19,870 nucleotides of DNA, from the IMG/VR virus record IMGVR_UViG_2579778899_000005; one strand, given 5' to 3'. Source of the DNA: a virus. Taxonomy: Duplodnaviria > Heunggongvirae > Uroviricota > Caudoviricetes. The first letter of the stretch is position 1. Every line of letters starts with the position of its first letter. The notes beneath the pieces were generated by a model. The model ran no database searches. It was given only the letters and a program-made list of their open reading frames with translations, and was not told the DNA's origin. Below are positions 1,752 through 13,302 of this stretch, piece by piece. The translations under genes were made by a program, and so were the position numbers.

Positions 1752-2897
1752 ATGAAGAAATTAATCGAACTCCGCCAGCAAAAAACCGCCCTGAAAAACC
1801 AGATGCGATCCCTGCTGGAAAAAGCCGACAGTGAAAACCGCAGCCTGAACGATGACGAAGGCAAACAGTTTGATGAACTGCGTGCAAAAGCCGATTCCCT
1901 CGACACAGAAATCTCCCGTCTTGAAGCTGTTGCGGATGAAGAACGTAACCAGCCAGGTGTTTCCGTCGAAGAGAAAATTACCAAAGACGAACTGCGCTCT
2001 TACATTCTGACCGGGGAAACCCGCAACCTGTCCGGCAGTGTCCCGGCTGATGGTGGTTATACGGTTATCCCGGAACTGAACAGAGAAATTATGCGTCAGC
2101 TTTCTGATGAATCGGTGATGCGTAAAATCTGTACCGTTAAAACCATTCACAGCAATGAATTTAAGCAACTGGTTTCTGCCGGGGGCGCGGTCGTTGAACA
2201 CGGCGAAGAAGGTGCGGCACGTAACCAGACGGCAACACCAAAACTGAATGAAGTCAGTATCCGCCTGTATCCGATCTACGCTTACCCGAAAACCACTCAG
2301 GAAATTATCGATTTTTCCGAAGTCGATATTATGGGCTGGTTATCTTCTGAAATTGGCGACACTTTCGTTGATACCGAAGAAACGGATCTGGTTTCCGGTG
2401 ATGGCGAGAAAAAAGCTAAAGGTTTCCTGGCTTTTCCGCGCACTGCGGATAACGACAAAACCCGTCCTTTCGGTACGCTCCAGACGAAAAAAGTTACTGG
2501 CAGTCTCAGCGCCGACATGCTGATTGACCTGAAATTTACGCTGCGCAATAAGTACCGCAAAAAAGCTGTATGGGTGATGAACTCAAATACAGCCGCCTCC
2601 GCACAAAAACTGAAAAATGCCACTGGTGATTACATCTGGCGCGATCGTTTACAGGCTGGTGATCCTGATTCTCTGCTGGGGCTTCCGGTTGAATATCTGG
2701 AATTTATGCCGGACGGTGTGATTGCAGTAGGTGACTTTAAGCGCGGTTATTTCATCGTTGACCATGAAACCGGTACGCGTACCCGTCCGGATTTCAGCGA
2801 ACCTGGATTCATTAACATCTATACCCAGAAATATCTGGGCGGTGGTGTGGTGGATTCGAACGCCATCAAGATTCTGGAAATTCAGGCTGGCAAGTAA
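1752..2897 (+). CDS. Major capsid protein, HK97 family, with N-terminal coiled-coil delta (scaffold) domain
   Basis: 381 aa. N-terminal ~100 aa is a charged coiled coil. C-terminal part carries HK97-fold motifs (KGFLAFP, GDFKRGYFIVD, GGGVVDSNAIKILEI). No separate scaffold gene. Confidence 0.9.
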   Translation: MKKLIELRQQKTALKNQMRSLLEKADSENRSLNDDEGKQFDELRAKADSLDTEISRLEAVADEERNQPGVSVEEKITKDELRSYILTGETRNLSGSVPADGGYTVIPELNREIMRQLSDESVMRKICTVKTIHSNEFKQLVSAGGAVVEHGEEGAARNQTATPKLNEVSIRLYPIYAYPKTTQEIIDFSEVDIMGWLSSEIGDTFVDTEETDLVSGDGEKKAKGFLAFPRTADNDKTRPFGTLQTKKVTGSLSADMLIDLKFTLRNKYRKKAVWVMNSNTAASAQKLKNATGDYIWRDRLQAGDPDSLLGLPVEYLEFMPDGVIAVGDFKRGYFIVDHETGTRTRPDFSEPGFINIYTQKYLGGGVVDSNAIKILEIQAGK

Positions 2898-2902
2898 TGA
2901 GC

Positions 2903-2927
2903 AAAGGGGGCTTCGGCCTCCTTTTTC
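2903..2927 (+). terminator. Rho-independent terminator or attenuator directly after the capsid gene
   Basis: GGGGGC (2906-2911), TTCG tetraloop, GCCTCC (2916-2921; one G-U pair), then TTTTT 2922-2926. Begins 6 nt after the capsid stop. Confidence 0.55.
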
Positions 2928-2946
2928 AGCTTTATGGAGTACACCG

Positions 2947-3507
2947 ATGAAAAATACCGATTTTGAAATCCGTACATCTGAACTGACCGCCTGCGATAAA
3001 AAACTGGTGGGTTATGCCGTTCGCTGGAACAGCCTTTCAGAAATTATCTGGGACGAATTCCGCGAACAGTTCACGCCGGGGGCTTTTGCTGACTATCTGG
3101 CGGCGGGTAATGATGTGCGCTGCCTGTATGAGCATGACTATACCCGACTGCTGGGGCGCACCAAATCCGGAACACTGGTACTGACTGAGGACAACACCGG
3201 GCTACGTTTTGAACTGACACCGCCTGATACCCAGCTTGGAAAAGATGTGCTTACGCTGGTGGAGCGTGGCGACATTACAGGAATGAGCTTTGGCTTTCGC
3301 GCATTATGCGAAGAGTGGAATATCGCGCAAAAACCGTATCTGCGCACTGTTACCGCCGCAGAACTTCGTGAAATCACGATAACGTCAATGCCTGCTTATC
3401 CCGAATCTGGCGTGGAGATTGCCCATCGTTCGTTGTTTGCACAGCACCCTGAATTACGCCCGGCAGGAAATAATCGTCATCGCTGGGCTGAACTGGCGGG
3501 GTTGTGA
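2947..3507 (+). CDS. Prohead maturation protease, HK97 (S78) family
   Basis: ATG 2947 with GGAG 2936-2939 at 7 nt spacing. Motifs GYAVRWN and GMSFGF are typical of HK97-family prohead proteases. Stop TGA 3505-3507. Confidence 0.85.
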   Translation: MKNTDFEIRTSELTACDKKLVGYAVRWNSLSEIIWDEFREQFTPGAFADYLAAGNDVRCLYEHDYTRLLGRTKSGTLVLTEDNTGLRFELTPPDTQLGKDVLTLVERGDITGMSFGFRALCEEWNIAQKPYLRTVTAAELREITITSMPAYPESGVEIAHRSLFAQHPELRPAGNNRHRWAELAGL

Positions 3508-3508
3508 T

Positions 3509-4723
3509 ATGTGGTGGCCTTTTAGTCGTAAAAAAAGCGATCTGCGTAACCTGTCCATTGATGATTTTCTGGCGCTGTCCGGCGTACCGAATACCGGATC
3601 CGGAGAATATGTTTCTGCCGGGACGGCTGAATCATTGCCTGCTGTGATGAACGCGGTTTCTGTCATCGCTGAGGCGGTGGCCACGATGCCGTGTTATCTG
3701 TATCTGGTACGCAATGACAAGGGCAGGGAGGCGCGGGAATGGCTGGACAGTCACCCGGTCGATATTCTGCTGAATGAGCAGCCTAATTCGTGCCAGACAC
3801 CTTACCAGTTTAAACGCACAATGATGCGTCACTGCCTGCTGAACGGTAACGCCTATGCGGTTATTGAGTGGGGGCGGGACGGTCAGCCAAAATCACTTCA
3901 TCCTTATGCGCCGGGGTGTGTTGTACCGGAACGCACTGGCGCACACAAATACCGCTATACCATCACCGAACCCTATACAGGAACGGTGCGCACGTATTTA
4001 CAGGAAGAAGTTCTGCATCTCCGCTATGCCTCGGATGATGGCTTTCTGGGGCGCTCCCCCGTCACGATTTGCCGTGAGGCGCTGGGGCTTGGCCTTGCTC
4101 AACAGCGTCACGGAGCCAGCATTATGAAAGATGGCATGATGGCGGCAGGGATTATCACGTCAGGCGAATGGCTGGACGGCGTAAAAGGTAAACAGGCATT
4201 AGACGCCCTGGAACGCTACAAGGGGGCGAAAAATGCCGGAAAAACGCCAATCCTTGAAGGGGGCATGGATTACAAGCAACTGGGGATGAGTAACCAGGAT
4301 GCGGAATGGCTGGCCTCCCGTCGCTTCTCCATTGAAGACATCGCCCGGATGTTCAACGTGTCGCCTATTTTTCTGCAGGAATACAGCAACAGCACCTACA
4401 GCAATTTCAGTGAGGCAAGCCGCGCGTTTCTGACCATGACAATGCGTCCGTGGCTGGCGAACTTCGAACAGCAAATCAAGGCCGCTTTGCTGGTGGCTTC
4501 TCCCGTACCTGGTACCCGTTATCTGGTTGAGTTTGATTCAGCCGATTTATTACGCGCCACCCCTACCGAACGTTACGCCACGTATGAGAAAGGGATTAAG
4601 AACGGGATCATGAATCCGAACGAAGCCCGCGAACGTGAGGGGATGCCGCCGCGTGAAGGTGGCGACGAATTCAGCCAGGCATGGAAGCAGACGGTGGAAA
4701 TTAAAGGTGAAAAAGATGAGTGA
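3509..4723 (+). CDS. Portal protein, HK97 family
   Basis: ATG 3509 lies 1 nt after the protease stop. 404 aa protein with the same overall pattern as the second portal in this window (NGNAYAV..., MDYKQLGMSNQDAEWLASRRFSIEDIARMFNVSP). Stop TGA 4721-4723. Confidence 0.9.
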   Translation: MWWPFSRKKSDLRNLSIDDFLALSGVPNTGSGEYVSAGTAESLPAVMNAVSVIAEAVATMPCYLYLVRNDKGREAREWLDSHPVDILLNEQPNSCQTPYQFKRTMMRHCLLNGNAYAVIEWGRDGQPKSLHPYAPGCVVPERTGAHKYRYTITEPYTGTVRTYLQEEVLHLRYASDDGFLGRSPVTICREALGLGLAQQRHGASIMKDGMMAAGIITSGEWLDGVKGKQALDALERYKGAKNAGKTPILEGGMDYKQLGMSNQDAEWLASRRFSIEDIARMFNVSPIFLQEYSNSTYSNFSEASRAFLTMTMRPWLANFEQQIKAALLVASPVPGTRYLVEFDSADLLRATPTERYATYEKGIKNGIMNPNEAREREGMPPREGGDEFSQAWKQTVEIKGEKDE

Positions 4724-5455: not shown

Positions 5456-5624
5456 ACAGGAGCAAAACAGGCTGATACGTGGACTGATAAGGCAGCGTGA
5501 CACATGGAAGGCACAGGAGACAGGGCACAAAGCCAACAGGACAGGGCGCACAGAACGCACCACAGCGAAGCGATTAACCGACCGTGACCGCGAGGTCATG
5601 GAATGTTTTCGCAATCGCTGGTGA
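5439..5624 (+). CDS. Possible small basic protein (61 aa); coding status uncertain
   Basis: ATG 5439 overlaps the HNH 3' end in another frame, stop TGA 5622-5624. Arg/Lys-rich, no clear RBS. May be non-coding sequence within a packaging-site region. Confidence 0.25.
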   Translation: MAMMTEQEQNRLIRGLIRQRDTWKAQETGHKANRTGRTERTTAKRLTDRDREVMECFRNRW

Positions 5625-5743
5625 GGCCGTCAGAGGGGGTGGGGGAGGTTTTCAGGACAAAACCGTCCCTGCCGGACACCGACCGCCTCCTCAAATTTTT
5701 GTGCACGGGAATTTTTTTGAAAATAATTGGGCGAAAAAAGAAC

Positions 5744-6100
5744 ATGGCAAGACCACCAAAAGCCCCCGCTTACCTGGATGAAATTGCGGTCAGGCAATGG
5801 AAGGAAAAATCGCGCCAGCTTTCCGTGCGGGAAGACCTTACCCCCGCCGACTGGAGCAATCTGGAGCTGTATTGCGTTAACTACTCCATATACCGCAAAG
5901 CCGTCGAAGACCTTGCGACGCGCGGGTTCAGCATTGTTAACAGTCAGGGCAGCGAGAGCAGAAACCCCGCCCTGAGCGCAAAGGCTGACGCAGAAAGAAT
6001 AATGATCAAAATGGCTTCTTTGCTGGGTTTTGACCCGGTAAGCCGCCGCAGAAATCCACCGGAAACAGAGGAAGAGGACGAGCTTGACCGCCTGGCATGA
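5744..6100 (+). CDS. Terminase small subunit, P27-family-like
   Basis: 118 aa beginning MARPPKAPAYLDEIAVRQWKE..., with the size and N-terminal pattern of P27-family TerS. Positioned between HNH and TerL. No strong SD before ATG 5744. Confidence 0.75.
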   Translation: MARPPKAPAYLDEIAVRQWKEKSRQLSVREDLTPADWSNLELYCVNYSIYRKAVEDLATRGFSIVNSQGSESRNPALSAKADAERIMIKMASLLGFDPVSRRRNPPETEEEDELDRLA

Positions 6101-7745
6101 GTACGCAGAAGGCGTAAAAAACGGCAAAATTACGGCCTGTAAACGACTGAAACAGGCCGTTAAACGGTATTTTTCTGACCTTGAAAACCCCCTTTACACG
6201 TTCGATCCGGAGGTCGTGGAGCGGTTTATTGCCTTTTCCAGGGTGTGTCCGCACGTAAAAGGCGCAATGCGCGGTAGCCCCATTGAGCTGGAGCCGTGGC
6301 AGCAGTTCGCCTTTGCCTGCATCCTGGGCTTTAAGGTTAAGGCCACCGGACGGCGCAAATACACCAGCGCATTCATTGAAGTACCGCGAAAAAATGCCAA
6401 ATCCACGGTCGCCGCTATCCTGGCTAACTGGTTTCTGGTTATGGAAAACGGGCAGCAGGATATTTACACCGCCGCCGTGAGTCGTGATCAGGCGCGGATC
6501 GTGTTTGATGATGCGCGTCAGATGTGCCTTTTATCCCGACCGTTACGAAAGCGGGTAAATATTCAGGCACACAAGGTGATACACCCGAAAACCAACAGCC
6601 TGTTAAAGCCACTGGCAGCAAAAGCGGCAACCATTGAGGGGACAAACCCGAGTCTCGCCATTGTGGATGAATATCACCTGCACCCTGACAACGGGGTTTA
6701 TTCCGCGCTTGAACTGGGAATGGGGGCGCGTCCGGAGGGGTTATTATTTGCCATCACCACATCGGGGAGCAACGTTGTTTCAGCCTGTAAACAACACTAC
6801 GACTATTGCTGCCAGATACTGGATGGTGAAGAGGTGAACGAATCCATGTTCGTGCTTATTTACGAGCTGGATGATGAAAGCGAGGTTGACGATCCGGCGA
6901 TGTGGATAAAGGCGAATCCCAATATCGATGTTTCCGTCGATCGTGAAAAACTGGCCTCAACCATCCAGAAAGCGCGGGGTATTCCGTCGCAGTGGGTGGA
7001 AATGCTCACCAAGCGATTCAATATCTGGTGTCAGGGGGCTACGCCGTGGATGGGTAACGGTGCATGGGCGGAGTGCGCCGGAACGTTCGCGGAGGCGGAT
7101 TTATACGGGCAGGAGTGCTACGCGGGGCTGGACTTATCATCAACTAGCGATATTTCCAGCGTGTGCTATGCCTTTCCGGTCGGTAAAAAGATTATGCTGG
7201 TTTCCCGTCACTATCTGCCGGAATTTCAGCTACAGAACCCCGCCAATAAAAACCGCGCCATCTATCGCCAGTGGGTAAAGGCGGGCTGGATACGCACAAC
7301 ACCGGGTGACTGCATTGATTATGACCGTATCCGTGATGACATCATGGCGGATGCAGAGAATTTCAATATCAGGCTGGTGGGCTTCGATACATGGAACGCC
7401 ACGCACCTGAGGACGCAGCTACAGGGGGCAGGATTTGAGGTGGAGCCGTTCCCGCAAACATACCTTCGTTTCAGTCCGGCGGCGAAATCGTTCGAAGTTT
7501 TTGTTAACCGGAAGGTGATTGTGCATCGTGGCGATCCGGTGCTGGCCTGGTCAATGAGTAATGTTGTGATGCAGAGTGACGCGAACGCCAATATCAAGCC
7601 GAACAAGAAAAAATCATCCAACAAGATAGACCCGAGCGTTGCGGCGCTGATGGCGTTTGGCACATTCCAGGCAGAGCATGAGGAATTTGCATTTGATATG
7701 AGCGACAGCCACAAAGAGCGGCTTGCGGCGTTTGATGGGGTATGA
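6084..7745 (+). CDS. Terminase large subunit (ATPase plus nuclease domains)
   Basis: 553 aa. Start taken as TTG 6084 (AGAGGA 6073-6078 upstream), overlapping the terS end; start codon choice is uncertain. The C-terminal half aligns by eye with the truncated terminase fragment at 8737-9462. Confidence 0.9.
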   Translation: MTAWHEYAEGVKNGKITACKRLKQAVKRYFSDLENPLYTFDPEVVERFIAFSRVCPHVKGAMRGSPIELEPWQQFAFACILGFKVKATGRRKYTSAFIEVPRKNAKSTVAAILANWFLVMENGQQDIYTAAVSRDQARIVFDDARQMCLLSRPLRKRVNIQAHKVIHPKTNSLLKPLAAKAATIEGTNPSLAIVDEYHLHPDNGVYSALELGMGARPEGLLFAITTSGSNVVSACKQHYDYCCQILDGEEVNESMFVLIYELDDESEVDDPAMWIKANPNIDVSVDREKLASTIQKARGIPSQWVEMLTKRFNIWCQGATPWMGNGAWAECAGTFAEADLYGQECYAGLDLSSTSDISSVCYAFPVGKKIMLVSRHYLPEFQLQNPANKNRAIYRQWVKAGWIRTTPGDCIDYDRIRDDIMADAENFNIRLVGFDTWNATHLRTQLQGAGFEVEPFPQTYLRFSPAAKSFEVFVNRKVIVHRGDPVLAWSMSNVVMQSDANANIKPNKKKSSNKIDPSVAALMAFGTFQAEHEEFAFDMSDSHKERLAAFDGV

Positions 7746-8035
7746 CGAGAATGAGCGAAACCGAACTACTAAAAATAATCCGCCGCGTTACCGGAATCAG
7801 CCAGGAAGCAGGCAAACAGGAGGCCACGCAGCCGGACAGCGTGATAGCCGAAAATTACGCGCGTGTGGTGGCTGAGGTGATGCGCCGTGACGGTATCGAG
7901 CTTAACGGCGTGGATATACGCAATATACGCACCAGAGTTCTGGAGTTGTTGTCATATCGTCGCCGCGTGGAGATGTACCAGGAGAAAGAAAAAATTACTT
8001 ACCACTGGAAGAAGCCGGAGCGGTTACGACGTTAA
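7742..8035 (+). CDS. Hypothetical protein (94-97 aa), translationally coupled to terL
   Basis: ATG 7742 overlaps the terL stop (ATGA); alternative ATG at 7751. Stop TAA 8033-8035. No recognisable family. Immediately followed by a phased repeat array. Confidence 0.5.
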   Translation: MTRMSETELLKIIRRVTGISQEAGKQEATQPDSVIAENYARVVAEVMRRDGIELNGVDIRNIRTRVLELLSYRRRVEMYQEKEKITYHWKKPERLRR

Positions 8036-8041
8036 CTTGTG

Positions 8042-8090
8042 GTGACATACCGTGACGGAGAGTGACAACCAGTGACACACAGTGACAAAA
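8042..8090 (+). repeat. Five tandem GTGAC(A) motifs at exact 10 bp periodicity
   Basis: GTGAC at 8042, 8052, 8062, 8072 and 8082 (GGTGACATAC CGTGACGGAG AGTGACAACC AGTGACACAC AGTGACAAAA). One copy per helical turn, starting 7 nt after the stop of ORF 7742-8035. Confidence 0.75.
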
Positions 8091-8108
8091 AGACGGTATT
8101 TAAATAGA

Positions 8109-8137
8109 GTGGGTGTTTAATACCCCCCGTTTTTTTT
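8109..8137 (+). terminator. Possible weak terminator (short imperfect stem plus T8 run)
   Basis: GGGT (8111-8114) can pair with ACCC (8122-8125), followed by C-rich bases and TTTTTTTT 8130-8137. The stem is weak, so this is tentative. Confidence 0.35.
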
Positions 8138-8289
8138 CGTGTGGTGCATGGTCAAAATGACCACGGAGAAGATACGCACCGAAGCAGAACAATTACCGTA
8201 GGTTAAAGCGACAGTATTCACACCAGCAACCTGATTATCAATTTTCAGCCGTTCGGTGGCATCACTGGCCCCATTTTCCTGATGGGGTT

Positions 8290-8442
8290 GCGGGTTATTT
8301 GGGGGGTATTTGCGGGTTATTTTGAATGTCTCGCGGGTTACGCTTTGGCTAATATTCAAACGCATCATTTTTTAACGCATTGATATTAAAGAATAAAAAA
8401 TACTTAGCAAGCGAAGATAACCCGCTAACCCGCATAACCCGC
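8290..8442. repeat. Iteron-like repeat clusters: 3x GCGGGTTA(T) at ~22 bp spacing, an AT-rich core, then 3x inverted TAACCCGC in tandem
   Basis: Direct copies start at 8290, 8312 and 8333, with a degenerate GGGGGTATTT copy at 8301-8311. Reverse-complement copies at 8418-8425, 8426-8433 and 8435-8442. They flank a ~75 bp AT-rich segment (8343-8417). A 12 bp GTATATATATAC palindrome follows at 8451-8462. Confidence 0.75.
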
Positions 8443-8629
8443 ACTGTTTTGTATATATATACGAAAAATTGCATTCAGGGGGGTGATCGAAATTTCTACT
8501 GCCTCTTATCTCTTTGAGTGCTCACCTCGTCAGATTGTTACACACAAGAAATAAAAAATGCTTCGCGATGGTAGGTCGAATCACTGTATCAAAAAACGGT
8601 GTGTATCAGCATTAAAACAATACAGATAC

Positions 8630-8650
8630 GTGTATTGCGCTGTGTATTGC
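8630..8650 (+). repeat. Tandem GTGTATTGC repeat (2 copies, 12 bp apart)
   Basis: Copies at 8630-8638 and 8642-8650, with a related GTGTATC at 8601-8607, in AT-rich non-coding DNA. Confidence 0.6.
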
Positions 8651-8736
8651 TTGATGATTTATAAAGACTGTTTTTTCATGTTAAACGATTGATATACAGG
8701 TGATTTTAAAAAACTTGAAATATTCTTACCAAACAC

Positions 8737-9462
8737 ATGAATGTGTGGGTAACAGCAGAGTCTGCCTGGATGGACATGATTAAGTGGGAGAAGTGCGAAT
8801 ACATTGCCCCACGACATGAGCTGAAAACGTATCCCATGTGGGTCGGCGTTGACCTTGCTCATAAGATTGATATCTGTGCGGCGGCAAAACTCTGGCGAAC
8901 GGATAACGGGCATGTTCATGCCGATTTTAAATTCTGGCTTCCGGAAGGACGGCTGGAACGATGCTCGCGGCAGCAGGCAGAACTTTACCGGAAGTGGGCG
9001 GAGATGGATAAGCTGATTCTGACGGATGGTGATGTTATCGATCATGCTCAGATAAAAAGTGACTTACTGGAATGGATTGGTGGTGAAAACCTCAGGGAAC
9101 TGGGATTTGACCCGTGGAGCGCGATGCAGTTCAGCCTGGCACTGGCTGAAGAAGGGATACCGCTGGTGGAGGTTCCGCAGACGGTTCGCAATCTGTCAGA
9201 GGCCATGAAGGAAACGGAATCACTGGTCTATGCCGGGCGTTTCCATCACAGCAATCATCCGGTCATGAACTGGATGATGTCTAACGTTACGGTAAAACCG
9301 GACAAAAACGACAATATCTTCCCGAATAAATCCACGCTGGAAGCCAAAATCGACGGCCCTGTTGCGATGTTTACAGCAATGAGCCGGATGCTGGTCAATG
9401 GTGGTGAACCGGAGCTGGATCTGTCTGAACATCTGGTCAGCGTGGGCATCCGCTCGCTTTAA
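8737..9462 (+). pseudogene. Terminase large subunit remnant: C-terminal nuclease half only, N-terminal ATPase domain absent
   Basis: The 241 aa ORF aligns by eye with the C-terminal ~240 aa of the intact TerL at 6084-7745 (NVWVTAESAWM vs NIWCQGATPWM; VGVDLAHKID vs AGLDLSSTSD). An in-frame stop at 8716-8718 and a lack of SD upstream indicate truncation near 8720-8740. Confidence 0.7.
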
Positions 9463-12796: not shown

Positions 12797-12985
12797 ATGA
12801 TCCTGAAACAAGATCTGAAATGGTCACCGGACGGTATGCGTGTTGAGATTATTCGGGCCGGTGAGTATGAAGATAAAGAATTACCCAAACGGGTACGCGA
12901 AATTGCCACTGCAGCTGGGATTGTCTCTGATAAGAGAACACCTGTTGCGCGGGGGGCTGATAAGTCTAAAAAACAGCATTCATAG
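12797..12985 (+). CDS. Hypothetical small protein (62 aa)
   Basis: ATG 12797 with AGGTGA 12784-12789, stop TAG 12983-12985. Sits between the capsid and connector genes. No recognisable family. Confidence 0.5.
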   Translation: MILKQDLKWSPDGMRVEIIRAGEYEDKELPKRVREIATAAGIVSDKRTPVARGADKSKKQHS

Positions 12986-12996
12986 AGGTTGCCCAA

Positions 12997-13302
12997 ATGA
13001 TGCCCACTCTGGAAGAGCTTCGTGTTCAGTGCCGGATTGATGATGACAATGAACAGGAGAATTCTCTTCTTATGATGTATCTGGCTGCTGCTAGGGAAGA
13101 GGCTGAAAAGTTTTTAAACCGGACGCTTTACGATGAAACTGTTTCTGAGCAGGATACGACCGGGATTGTAATAACACCTCTGATAAAACTGCGTCTTATG
13201 CAACTGGTTGGCTACTGGTACGAGAACAGGGAAATGCAGGATGCAGTGCCTGATTTTTTCTATACCGGACTGCGGATGTATCGATTTCATCCCGGAACAT
13301 AG
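12997..13302 (+). CDS. Head-tail connector, gp6-like
   Basis: ATG 12997 with AGAGG upstream. 101 aa with size, position and pattern of gp6-like connectors (compare 4716-5015). Confidence 0.7.
   Translation: MMPTLEELRVQCRIDDDNEQENSLLMMYLAAAREEAEKFLNRTLYDETVSEQDTTGIVITPLIKLRLMQLVGYWYENREMQDAVPDFFYTGLRMYRFHPGT

Follow-up and report, generated by a model that had tools for sequence, protein, structure and literature searches.

In PICIs, the origin of replication consists of iteron sets placed around an A+T-rich centre immediately 3′ of rep, as demonstrated functionally for EcCICFT073 (PMC6092414). In the ori of SaPIs, opposed iterons (at least two per side) flank an AT-rich centre and are bound by the C-terminal winged helix of Rep, which loads itself as a helicase (PMC9371898). 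Among the capsid-forming PICIs (cf-PICIs; the definition of 10.1101/2022.09.08.507074 is used throughout), the element EcCIEDL933 of E. coli EDL933 (O157:H7) has been studied experimentally (10.1101/2022.09.08.507074). No description of the origin of EcCIEDL933, or of any other cf-PICI origin, was found in the papers searched.

Two further systems are relevant for comparison. Satellite P4 requires both ori and crr for its replication, and in iteron plasmids (P1, F) auxiliary iteron clusters are established negative regulators; such clusters, e.g. P1 incA, are direct-repeat arrays without an A+T-rich core. The P4 record (NC_001609) offers a precedent for one iteron in two clusters several kb apart: crr, made up of two direct repeats of 120 bp, adjoins the alpha gene, and ori is found at a distance of 4.8 kb.

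The unit described here, designated B, is located within the window, i.e. the whole 19,870-nt stretch of viral DNA that was analyzed. Like the origins of SaPIbov1, SaPI1 and EcCICFT073, it contains two opposed sets of short iterons around an A+T-rich centre, with three copies of GCGGGTTA on each side of the spacer. The six exact iterons, accompanied by one degenerate copy, fall within the published range of 6–12 with at least two opposed iterons per side. The element also encodes an initiator-helicase of the SaPI Rep/DUF927 type, and a second unit built from the same word (the A unit) is placed immediately 3′ of its rep gene. In its location, B departs from the PICI/SaPI origin: rep is about 8.5 kb away, and the unit follows terL, beside attR; in EcCIEDL933, both units are found 3′ of rep. 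Further differences are the presence of two units in inverted orientation and the length of the iterons (8 bp, compared to the 5–6 bp reported for SaPIs; PMC6092414, PMC9371898).

With P4 ori and crr, the locus shares a small satellite genome in which a single 8-bp iteron forms two clusters several kb apart, one directly after the replicase gene and the other near attP. P4 alpha homologues are moreover carried by cf-PICIs of Proteus with a split origin. However, the replicase of the element is of the DUF927 type and not an alpha-type protein with a 1KA8 domain, and its two clusters are inverted iteron/AT/iteron modules, with no 120-bp direct repeats of the crr type in either A or B. As in the case of P1 incA, additional origin iterons are present away from the initiation site of the same replicon, but B has a full two-sided origin layout. 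B therefore fits the architecture of PICI/SaPI origins but not their position, and the two-site layout of P4 but not its protein or repeat structure.

Anatomy of the B unit and its host element

The word GCGGGTTA was identified eight times on both strands of the 19.9-kb window, compared to an expected number of 0.49, and six of these copies are packed into 153 bp. Since none of 200 shuffles attained eight copies, clustering by chance is excluded. The initial annotation had described three direct repeats at 21–22-bp intervals, an AT-rich stretch of about 75 bp, three tandem copies of the reverse complement and, behind the repeats, a perfect palindrome. All four parts of this description were confirmed, and their coordinates are listed in Table 1.

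Table 1. Features of the B unit and its surroundings (window coordinates unless a locus is named).
Feature	Position	Strand	Remarks
Whole B unit (iterons, AT spacer, iterons, TATATA motif)	8285..8472		Kept as a block in L001–L004 despite varying flanks
Three phased iterons GCGGGTTA and one degenerate copy	8290..8340	+	Exact copies at 8290-8297, 8312-8319 and 8333-8340; spacings 22 and 21 bp
Degenerate iteron TTGGGGGGTATTT	8299-8311		In 11-bp register with the phased copies
A+T-rich spacer, presumed melting region	8341..8417		77 bp, 70% A+T
G+C minimum of the spacer	8350-8409		60 bp, 21.7% G+C; minimum of 7600-9200
IHF-consensus match inside the spacer	8373-8385	-	
Three tight tandem iterons, TAACCCGC on the + strand (inverted iteron)	8418..8442	-	Exact copies at 8418-8425, 8426-8433 and 8435-8442; spacings 8 and 9 bp
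T-tract / palindrome GTATATATATAC / A-tract	8447..8468		Palindrome 8451-8462, about 10 bp past the last iteron
Tandem pair of GTGTATTGC, candidate arm-type sites for the integrase at attR	8630..8650	+	Same tandem pair beside int at attL
cf-PICI capsid gene	1752-2897		Pfam
cf-PICI portal gene	3419-4723		Pfam
cf-PICI TerS gene	5603-6100		Pfam
cf-PICI large terminase gene (terL)	6084..7745	+	Pfam TerL_ATPase and TerL_nuclease; B lies 545 bp past the stop
Small conserved ORF (orf97) after terL	7742..8035	+	97 aa; outside the origin unit
3′ remnant of prophage TerL gene	8737..9462	+	Only positions 64-283 of Pfam TerL_nuclease; right boundary of the element
N-terminal part of the split prophage TerL	L003 758-1786		Strain KFu019; left of int
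Tandem (C)TGTGTATTGC of the left att arm	L003 1915-1936		Next to int; its right-arm counterpart is window 8630-8650
A unit	L003 8726-8868		
B unit	L003 17286-17438		
DnaA box of the A unit	L003 8747-8755; L001 4078; L004 8765; L087 10841		Consensus TTATNCACA
Contiguous A and B units of EcCIEDL933	L087 10821-11134		Directly after rep; about 310 bp, quasi-palindromic

The potential of the TA palindrome to form a hairpin or cruciform is weak (-3.9 kcal/mol, z = -1.7). A terminator scan gave terminator-like matches that overlap the iterons and are unconvincing, and an Rfam scan of positions 7600-8900 (E ≤ 1) detected no RNA family. Some RefSeq genomes annotate a “hypothetical” minus-strand ORF (8117-8368; 83 aa), whose overlap with the phased iterons is out of frame. 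It has no Pfam match and is not conserved, and L004 has lost this region but not B; the ORF is probably a spurious gene call.

Judged by gene content and order, positions 1 to ~8730 of the window are the right part of a cf-PICI of about 16 kb, belonging to the EcCIEDL933 family. Pfam analysis and four related E. coli loci (L001–L004) revealed an integrase, a replicase and the element's own capsid-to-TerL genes, without tail genes, between att sites. In the annotated E. coli relatives the genes are arranged in the order int, regulators, DUF4222, DUF927 replicase, ssb, perC, capsid, protease, portal, connector, HNH, terS, terL and a small ORF, and the gene order of the element is that of EcCIEDL933. 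B thus lies in the final non-coding segment of the satellite, with terL/orf97 on one side and attR on the other, and no coding sequence is present between B and attR in the window.

The DNA after position 8737 contains a second packaging module (Pfam), in which a TerL nuclease fragment is followed by portal, protease and capsid genes; in annotated relatives, tail and tape-measure genes come after this module. The cf-PICI splits the TerL gene of an HK97-like prophage in two. The right-hand remnant is labelled “terminase TerL endonuclease subunit, missing N-terminus” in RefSeq, and the N-terminal part is located left of int in strain KFu019 (Table 1). Sister elements with the same packaging genes are integrated in yifB (L001). 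Of the 25 complete E. coli genomes that matched best, at least 16 have the same insertion in the TerL gene. The integration of a tail-dependent satellite inside a packaging gene of a tail-encoding prophage is suggestive; satellites integrating inside prophages have been mentioned previously (PMC10085698).

The small ORF orf97 is 77% identical to the ORF found after terL in EcCIEDL933, where no B unit comes next, and it is deleted in L004, in which B is retained. It was rejected as a candidate iteron-binding protein on both grounds. Directly after the orf97 stop codon, five GTGAC(A) copies with a 10-bp phase were identified (8041-8087); L001 has this stretch unchanged, L002 and L003 have unrelated sequence in its place, and L004 lacks it. 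In a phage collection, no homologue of the region was found save a 2.2-kb fragment of a related element, with the iteron word GTGGGTTA.

The rep-adjacent unit and the covariation of iteron word and replicase

In L001–L004, the A unit lies directly behind the DUF927 replicase gene (spanning 23–165 bp past its stop codon) and before ssb. Two tight copies of GCGGGTTA are separated in it by A+T-rich DNA from four phased copies that point the opposite way. Its position corresponds to about 130–275 bp before the first base of the window, i.e. outside it and about 8.5 kb left of B. Exact copies of GCGGGTTA beyond A and B are essentially absent from these 24–27-kb loci. In opposite orientation, the tight pair GCGGGTTAtGCGGGTTA of B also opens the A unit. 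A match to the DnaA-box consensus is placed 3–4 bp from the tight pair of A in each of the four E. coli elements examined for it; B contains no such match and has the IHF-consensus match in its spacer instead. A and B are therefore not simple copies of each other.

The replicase encoded next to A (708 aa) contains a DUF927 domain (E = 1e-46). It matches the “pathogenicity island protein” of PDB entry 8tch (E = 4.6e-14), the “active helicase” of PDB entry 5dgk and, by tblastn, SaPIpT1028, and thus has the features of a SaPI-Rep-type initiator-helicase. The EcCIEDL933 replicase is 83% identical to it, and the iteron word of both elements is the same. In EcCIEDL933, A and B are contiguous directly after rep; next come TATATATA, a Shine-Dalgarno sequence and a small ORF, then ssb, and there is no iteron cluster after terL. 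The proximal half of this region matches the rep-adjacent unit of KFu019, and the distal half shares with B the three tight iterons and the TATATATA motif, the identity between them being 82% over 155 bp. This identity and the shared word indicate that B is orthologous to the distal half of the EcCIEDL933 origin region. By this comparison, the two halves that adjoin each other in EcCIEDL933 are split in the element analyzed here, and B now lies across ssb and the packaging module from its EcCIEDL933-type position. The right end of EcCIEDL933 past the orf97 homologue (L087 19380-19790) carries five repeats of about 24 bp (GGCGCGGTAACTnnnTGATATT), about 100 bp apart, which have no counterpart in the window.

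For a broader comparison, 80 loci with a cf-PICI-type TerL from Enterobacterales, Pasteurellales, Orbales and Aeromonas were gathered using TerL as an anchor. Wherever repeats were detectable (most of 49 related cf-PICIs), an iteron cluster begins within tens of bp of the rep stop codon. The iteron words differ among elements, and at least 15 were distinguished, including GCGGGTTA, GTGGGTTA, GTCGGGTA, TTGGTTCA, GTTGTCTC, GGTGAACA, GGTGCACA, GGTAGACA and GTGCGGCA. One of them, GGTGAACA, is the type-1 iteron of the annotated P4 record (NC_001609). Many cf-PICI replicases are full-length homologues of P4 alpha, and the C-termini of these alpha-type proteins match the P4 origin-binding domain 1KA8 (profile comparison, 2e-41).

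The relation between iteron word and replicase was examined in pairs of proteins whose helicase parts are at least 70% identical, by comparing the C-terminal 100–120 residues. In pairs using the same word, the helicase part and the C-terminus are about equally conserved (97/95, 76/75 and 88/85% identity, respectively), whereas in pairs using different words the identity of the C-terminus is 10–35 points lower (85/50, 96/65 and 98/80). This covariation holds in both replicase classes (DUF927-type and alpha-type) and suggests that the C-terminal ~120 residues of the replicase set the iteron specificity. For the C-terminal domain of the DUF927-type proteins, a DNA-binding role is proposed solely because of this covariation. 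Its sequence gave no PDB hit, and neither hhalign nor the PDB sequence search identified its fold. An hhalign comparison of the DUF927-type and alpha-type C-terminal profiles gave a probability of 2.7%, and a BLASTP search with P4 alpha against the E. coli DUF927 replicases yielded no hit. Several replicases of about 910 aa (L009, L044, L024, L041 and L007) combine an N-terminal primase of the P4 alpha type with a DUF927 helicase and a DUF927-type C-terminus; this predicted domain composition shows domain shuffling between two families of satellite replicases.

Despite differences in their words (seven were compared), the DUF927-type origins have one common layout, consisting of A followed by B: (i) a tight pair, an AT stretch and four to five phased copies, and (ii) two to three opposed phased copies, an AT stretch and a tight triplet followed by TATATATA(C), which holds the same position in origins with all seven words.

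Conservation and distribution of the distal unit

The conservation of B was analyzed with 21 distinct B sequences, in which five iterons were scored. Pairwise identity reaches 98% in the iteron columns, two of the five scored iterons (16 of 40 columns) being fixed by the search pattern, compared to 76% in the spacer and 73–76% across spacer and flanks. The TA palindrome is 95% identical, and the spacer has a length of 77 bp in all 21 units. The second and third phased iterons (8312-8319 and 8333-8340) are essentially invariant; the first one (8290-8297) lies outside the slice covered by the 21 sequences and is unchanged in L001–L004. Within this alignment, the iterons of B are selectively conserved.

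B also behaves as a module with respect to its flanks, as seen from the points at which related loci diverge. L004 lacks the region 7760-8270, yet retains B; the yifB-integrated L001 diverges to the right of 8498, and the similarity to elements with adjoining A and B units ends just past CGAAAAATTG, at about 8472.

An inverted cluster located after terL and built from the rep-adjacent word was found with three unrelated replicase classes: (i) in E. coli, with the word GCGGGTTA and a DUF927 replicase, (ii) in three species of Proteus, with the word GGTGCACA and a P4-alpha-like replicase, and (iii) in Rosenbergiella, with the word GTGCGGCA and a 467-aa replicase. In Rosenbergiella nectarea (L006; 3867-4100 and 11700-11900) the origin beside rep has been duplicated in inverted orientation after terL (96% identity over 142 bp), which places inverted copies of the origin on either side of ssb and the packaging module. 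The majority of the surveyed cf-PICIs have no cluster after terL. In several Pasteurellaceae loci (L071, L078, L080–L083), a second short repeat cluster was observed 13–16 kb from the rep-adjacent one; since the two have only 26–72 bp in common, these clusters may be att repeats rather than origin units.

Using a 17-mer common to the tight pairs of A and B, 71 loci were found in IMG/VR. The paired matches are always on opposite strands, either about 297 bp apart (contiguous type) or 7.8–10.7 kb apart (split type). A B unit follows terL in every IMG/VR locus that includes the 3′ end of a closely related terL (at least 97% identical). Among 5,426 complete E. coli genomes, full-length B is present in 161 and full-length A in 134. 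The occurrence of the split type at two att sites, together with its presence in 161 of these genomes, indicates that the arrangement belongs to a spreading lineage.

Three mosaic elements in IMG/VR carry a GCGGGTTA B unit after terL but encode a different replicase, of the P4-alpha-like or another type, with its own iterons next to rep. The orphan units are intact (3+3) in L130 (coordinates on the reverse complement: 2561-4606 and 12954-13107) and L135, and of the 2+3 type in L128; the rep-adjacent words are GGTGAACA in L130 and L135, and of the GGTAGA type in L128. A cognate Rep is therefore not always present. Since the orphan units are nearly identical to the B units of matched elements, these swaps of the rep module between cf-PICIs appear to be recent and have little bearing on long-term maintenance.

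Possible roles of the displaced unit

It is quite probable that B is a Rep–iteron unit of the origin type, one of two inverted units, which has been displaced to the far end of the cf-PICI. What is unusual in this second unit is its distance from rep. The origin-like function proposed in the initial annotation, which also named transfer origins and integrase substrates as alternatives, is supported by (i) the canonical origin that the same word forms 3′ of the replicase gene, (ii) the orthology with EcCIEDL933 and (iii) the covariation of iteron word and replicase C-terminus. According to this interpretation, the GCGGGTTA iterons would be the recognition sites of the DUF927/SaPI-Rep-like self-loading helicase of the element. 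On the model of SaPI Rep and P4 alpha, Rep molecules positioned on both sides would melt the A+T-rich spacer, and Rep would then load itself as the replicative helicase. B would provide a second site of initiation or else assist A in cis, in the way that crr serves P4 ori. The location of B between terL and attR follows from the placement of ssb and the capsid/packaging genes between the two units. Since A alone has the full iteron/AT/iteron arrangement together with a DnaA box, B may be dispensable. The absence of a distal unit from most cf-PICIs and the B units found beside non-cognate replicases also speak against an essential role. The chances that B is active in its displaced position, whether as an additional origin or in a crr-like role, seem roughly even.

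The main competing explanation, that B is a functionless leftover of a split ancestral A+B origin, with replication proceeding from A alone and B persisting only because the rearrangement or module insertion is recent, is fairly unlikely. It would agree with the complete PICI-type layout of A beside rep, with the lack of a distal cluster in most cf-PICIs, with the orphan B units beside non-cognate replicases and with the evidently recent origin of the inverted duplicate in Rosenbergiella (96% identity). A mere relic would, however, not be expected to keep its iterons (98%, against 76% in the spacer) and a constant spacer length among 21 sequences that have otherwise diverged to ~75%. Nor does it readily account for the recurrence of the arrangement with three unrelated classes of replicase and iteron, or for the fact that split-type elements are common and occur at different att sites. 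At the opposite extreme, this cf-PICI lineage may run on a split two-site origin in which both inverted units are needed in cis, as are P4 ori and crr, and in which Rep would bridge A and B into a loop around ssb and the capsid/packaging module; we regard this as possible, though doubtful. The same tentative standing applies to its corollary that the split layout arose, or was kept, on no fewer than three occasions, with replicases of the DUF927 type, of the P4 alpha type and of 467 aa. Such recurrence with unrelated replicases would point to a selective reason, which, if the two-site origin exists, could be the coupling of replication to packaging or to int expression across attP.

The remaining explanations assign to the repeats a role other than initiation. 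It is quite unlikely that B is a Rep-binding control site, acting by handcuffing or titration or as a Rep-regulated promoter, although auxiliary clusters with negative effects have precedents in P1 and F. In the promoter version, TATATA may be a -10 element reading across attP towards int in the excised circle, where int is the next gene in the same orientation. The conservation of TATATATA(C) about 10 bp past the tight iterons fits this proposal, and the motif may be a -10 element because in contiguous-type elements it is usually placed 20–25 bp before the ATG of the next gene, together with a Shine-Dalgarno sequence. A scan with the sigma-70 consensus, however, called no promoter at TATATA, for which there is no acceptable -35 sequence, and the full two-sided layout around an AT-rich core is that expected for melting rather than that of a simple iteron array. 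There is only a slight chance that the GCGGGTTA repeats are arm-type or accessory sites for an integrase or excisionase at attR, an alternative also raised in the initial annotation and compatible with the distance of B from the right junction of the element (about 270 bp) and with the opposed repeats known in recombinase substrates. Arm sites of attP would be found on both arms and vary with att specificity, but GCGGGTTA is absent from the attL arm, adjoins rep, and in EcCIEDL933 occurs only there, about 9 kb from attR. B is, moreover, shared by yifB-integrated elements and those residing in the prophage TerL gene, although the sequence to the right of 8498 differs. It is the other repeat, GTGTATTGC, that is present in tandem on both att arms, and the stretch containing it (8630-8650) diverges in the yifB-integrated L001; the att core itself was not definable from exact repeats alone. 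Equally improbable is a cos/pac recognition site for the satellite's own terminase, a proposal that fits the position of the repeats just downstream of terS-terL and the cos packaging of the element's own DNA (10.1101/2025.02.11.637232). HNH/P27-type systems, however, are expected to have their cos site between HNH and terS. Elements whose TerL is 77–83% identical to that of the window have wholly different words after terL, or none, and the iteron word follows the replicase, not TerL or TerS.

Phage satellites of the cf-PICI class, which was described only recently, are very widespread, and for the origin of the prototype family the iteron GCGGGTTA and an anatomy of two units are now given. 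From the covariation of iteron word and replicase C-terminus, origin/initiator pairs and incompatibility groups can be predicted by a simple rule. The origin units mark module boundaries, which can be split, duplicated in inverted orientation, or left as orphans by swaps of the rep module. Were B a relic, its displacement would be a matter of ordinary comparative anatomy; if the displaced unit is active, the element would possess a P4-like two-site origin, with a bearing on satellite engineering and replication control.
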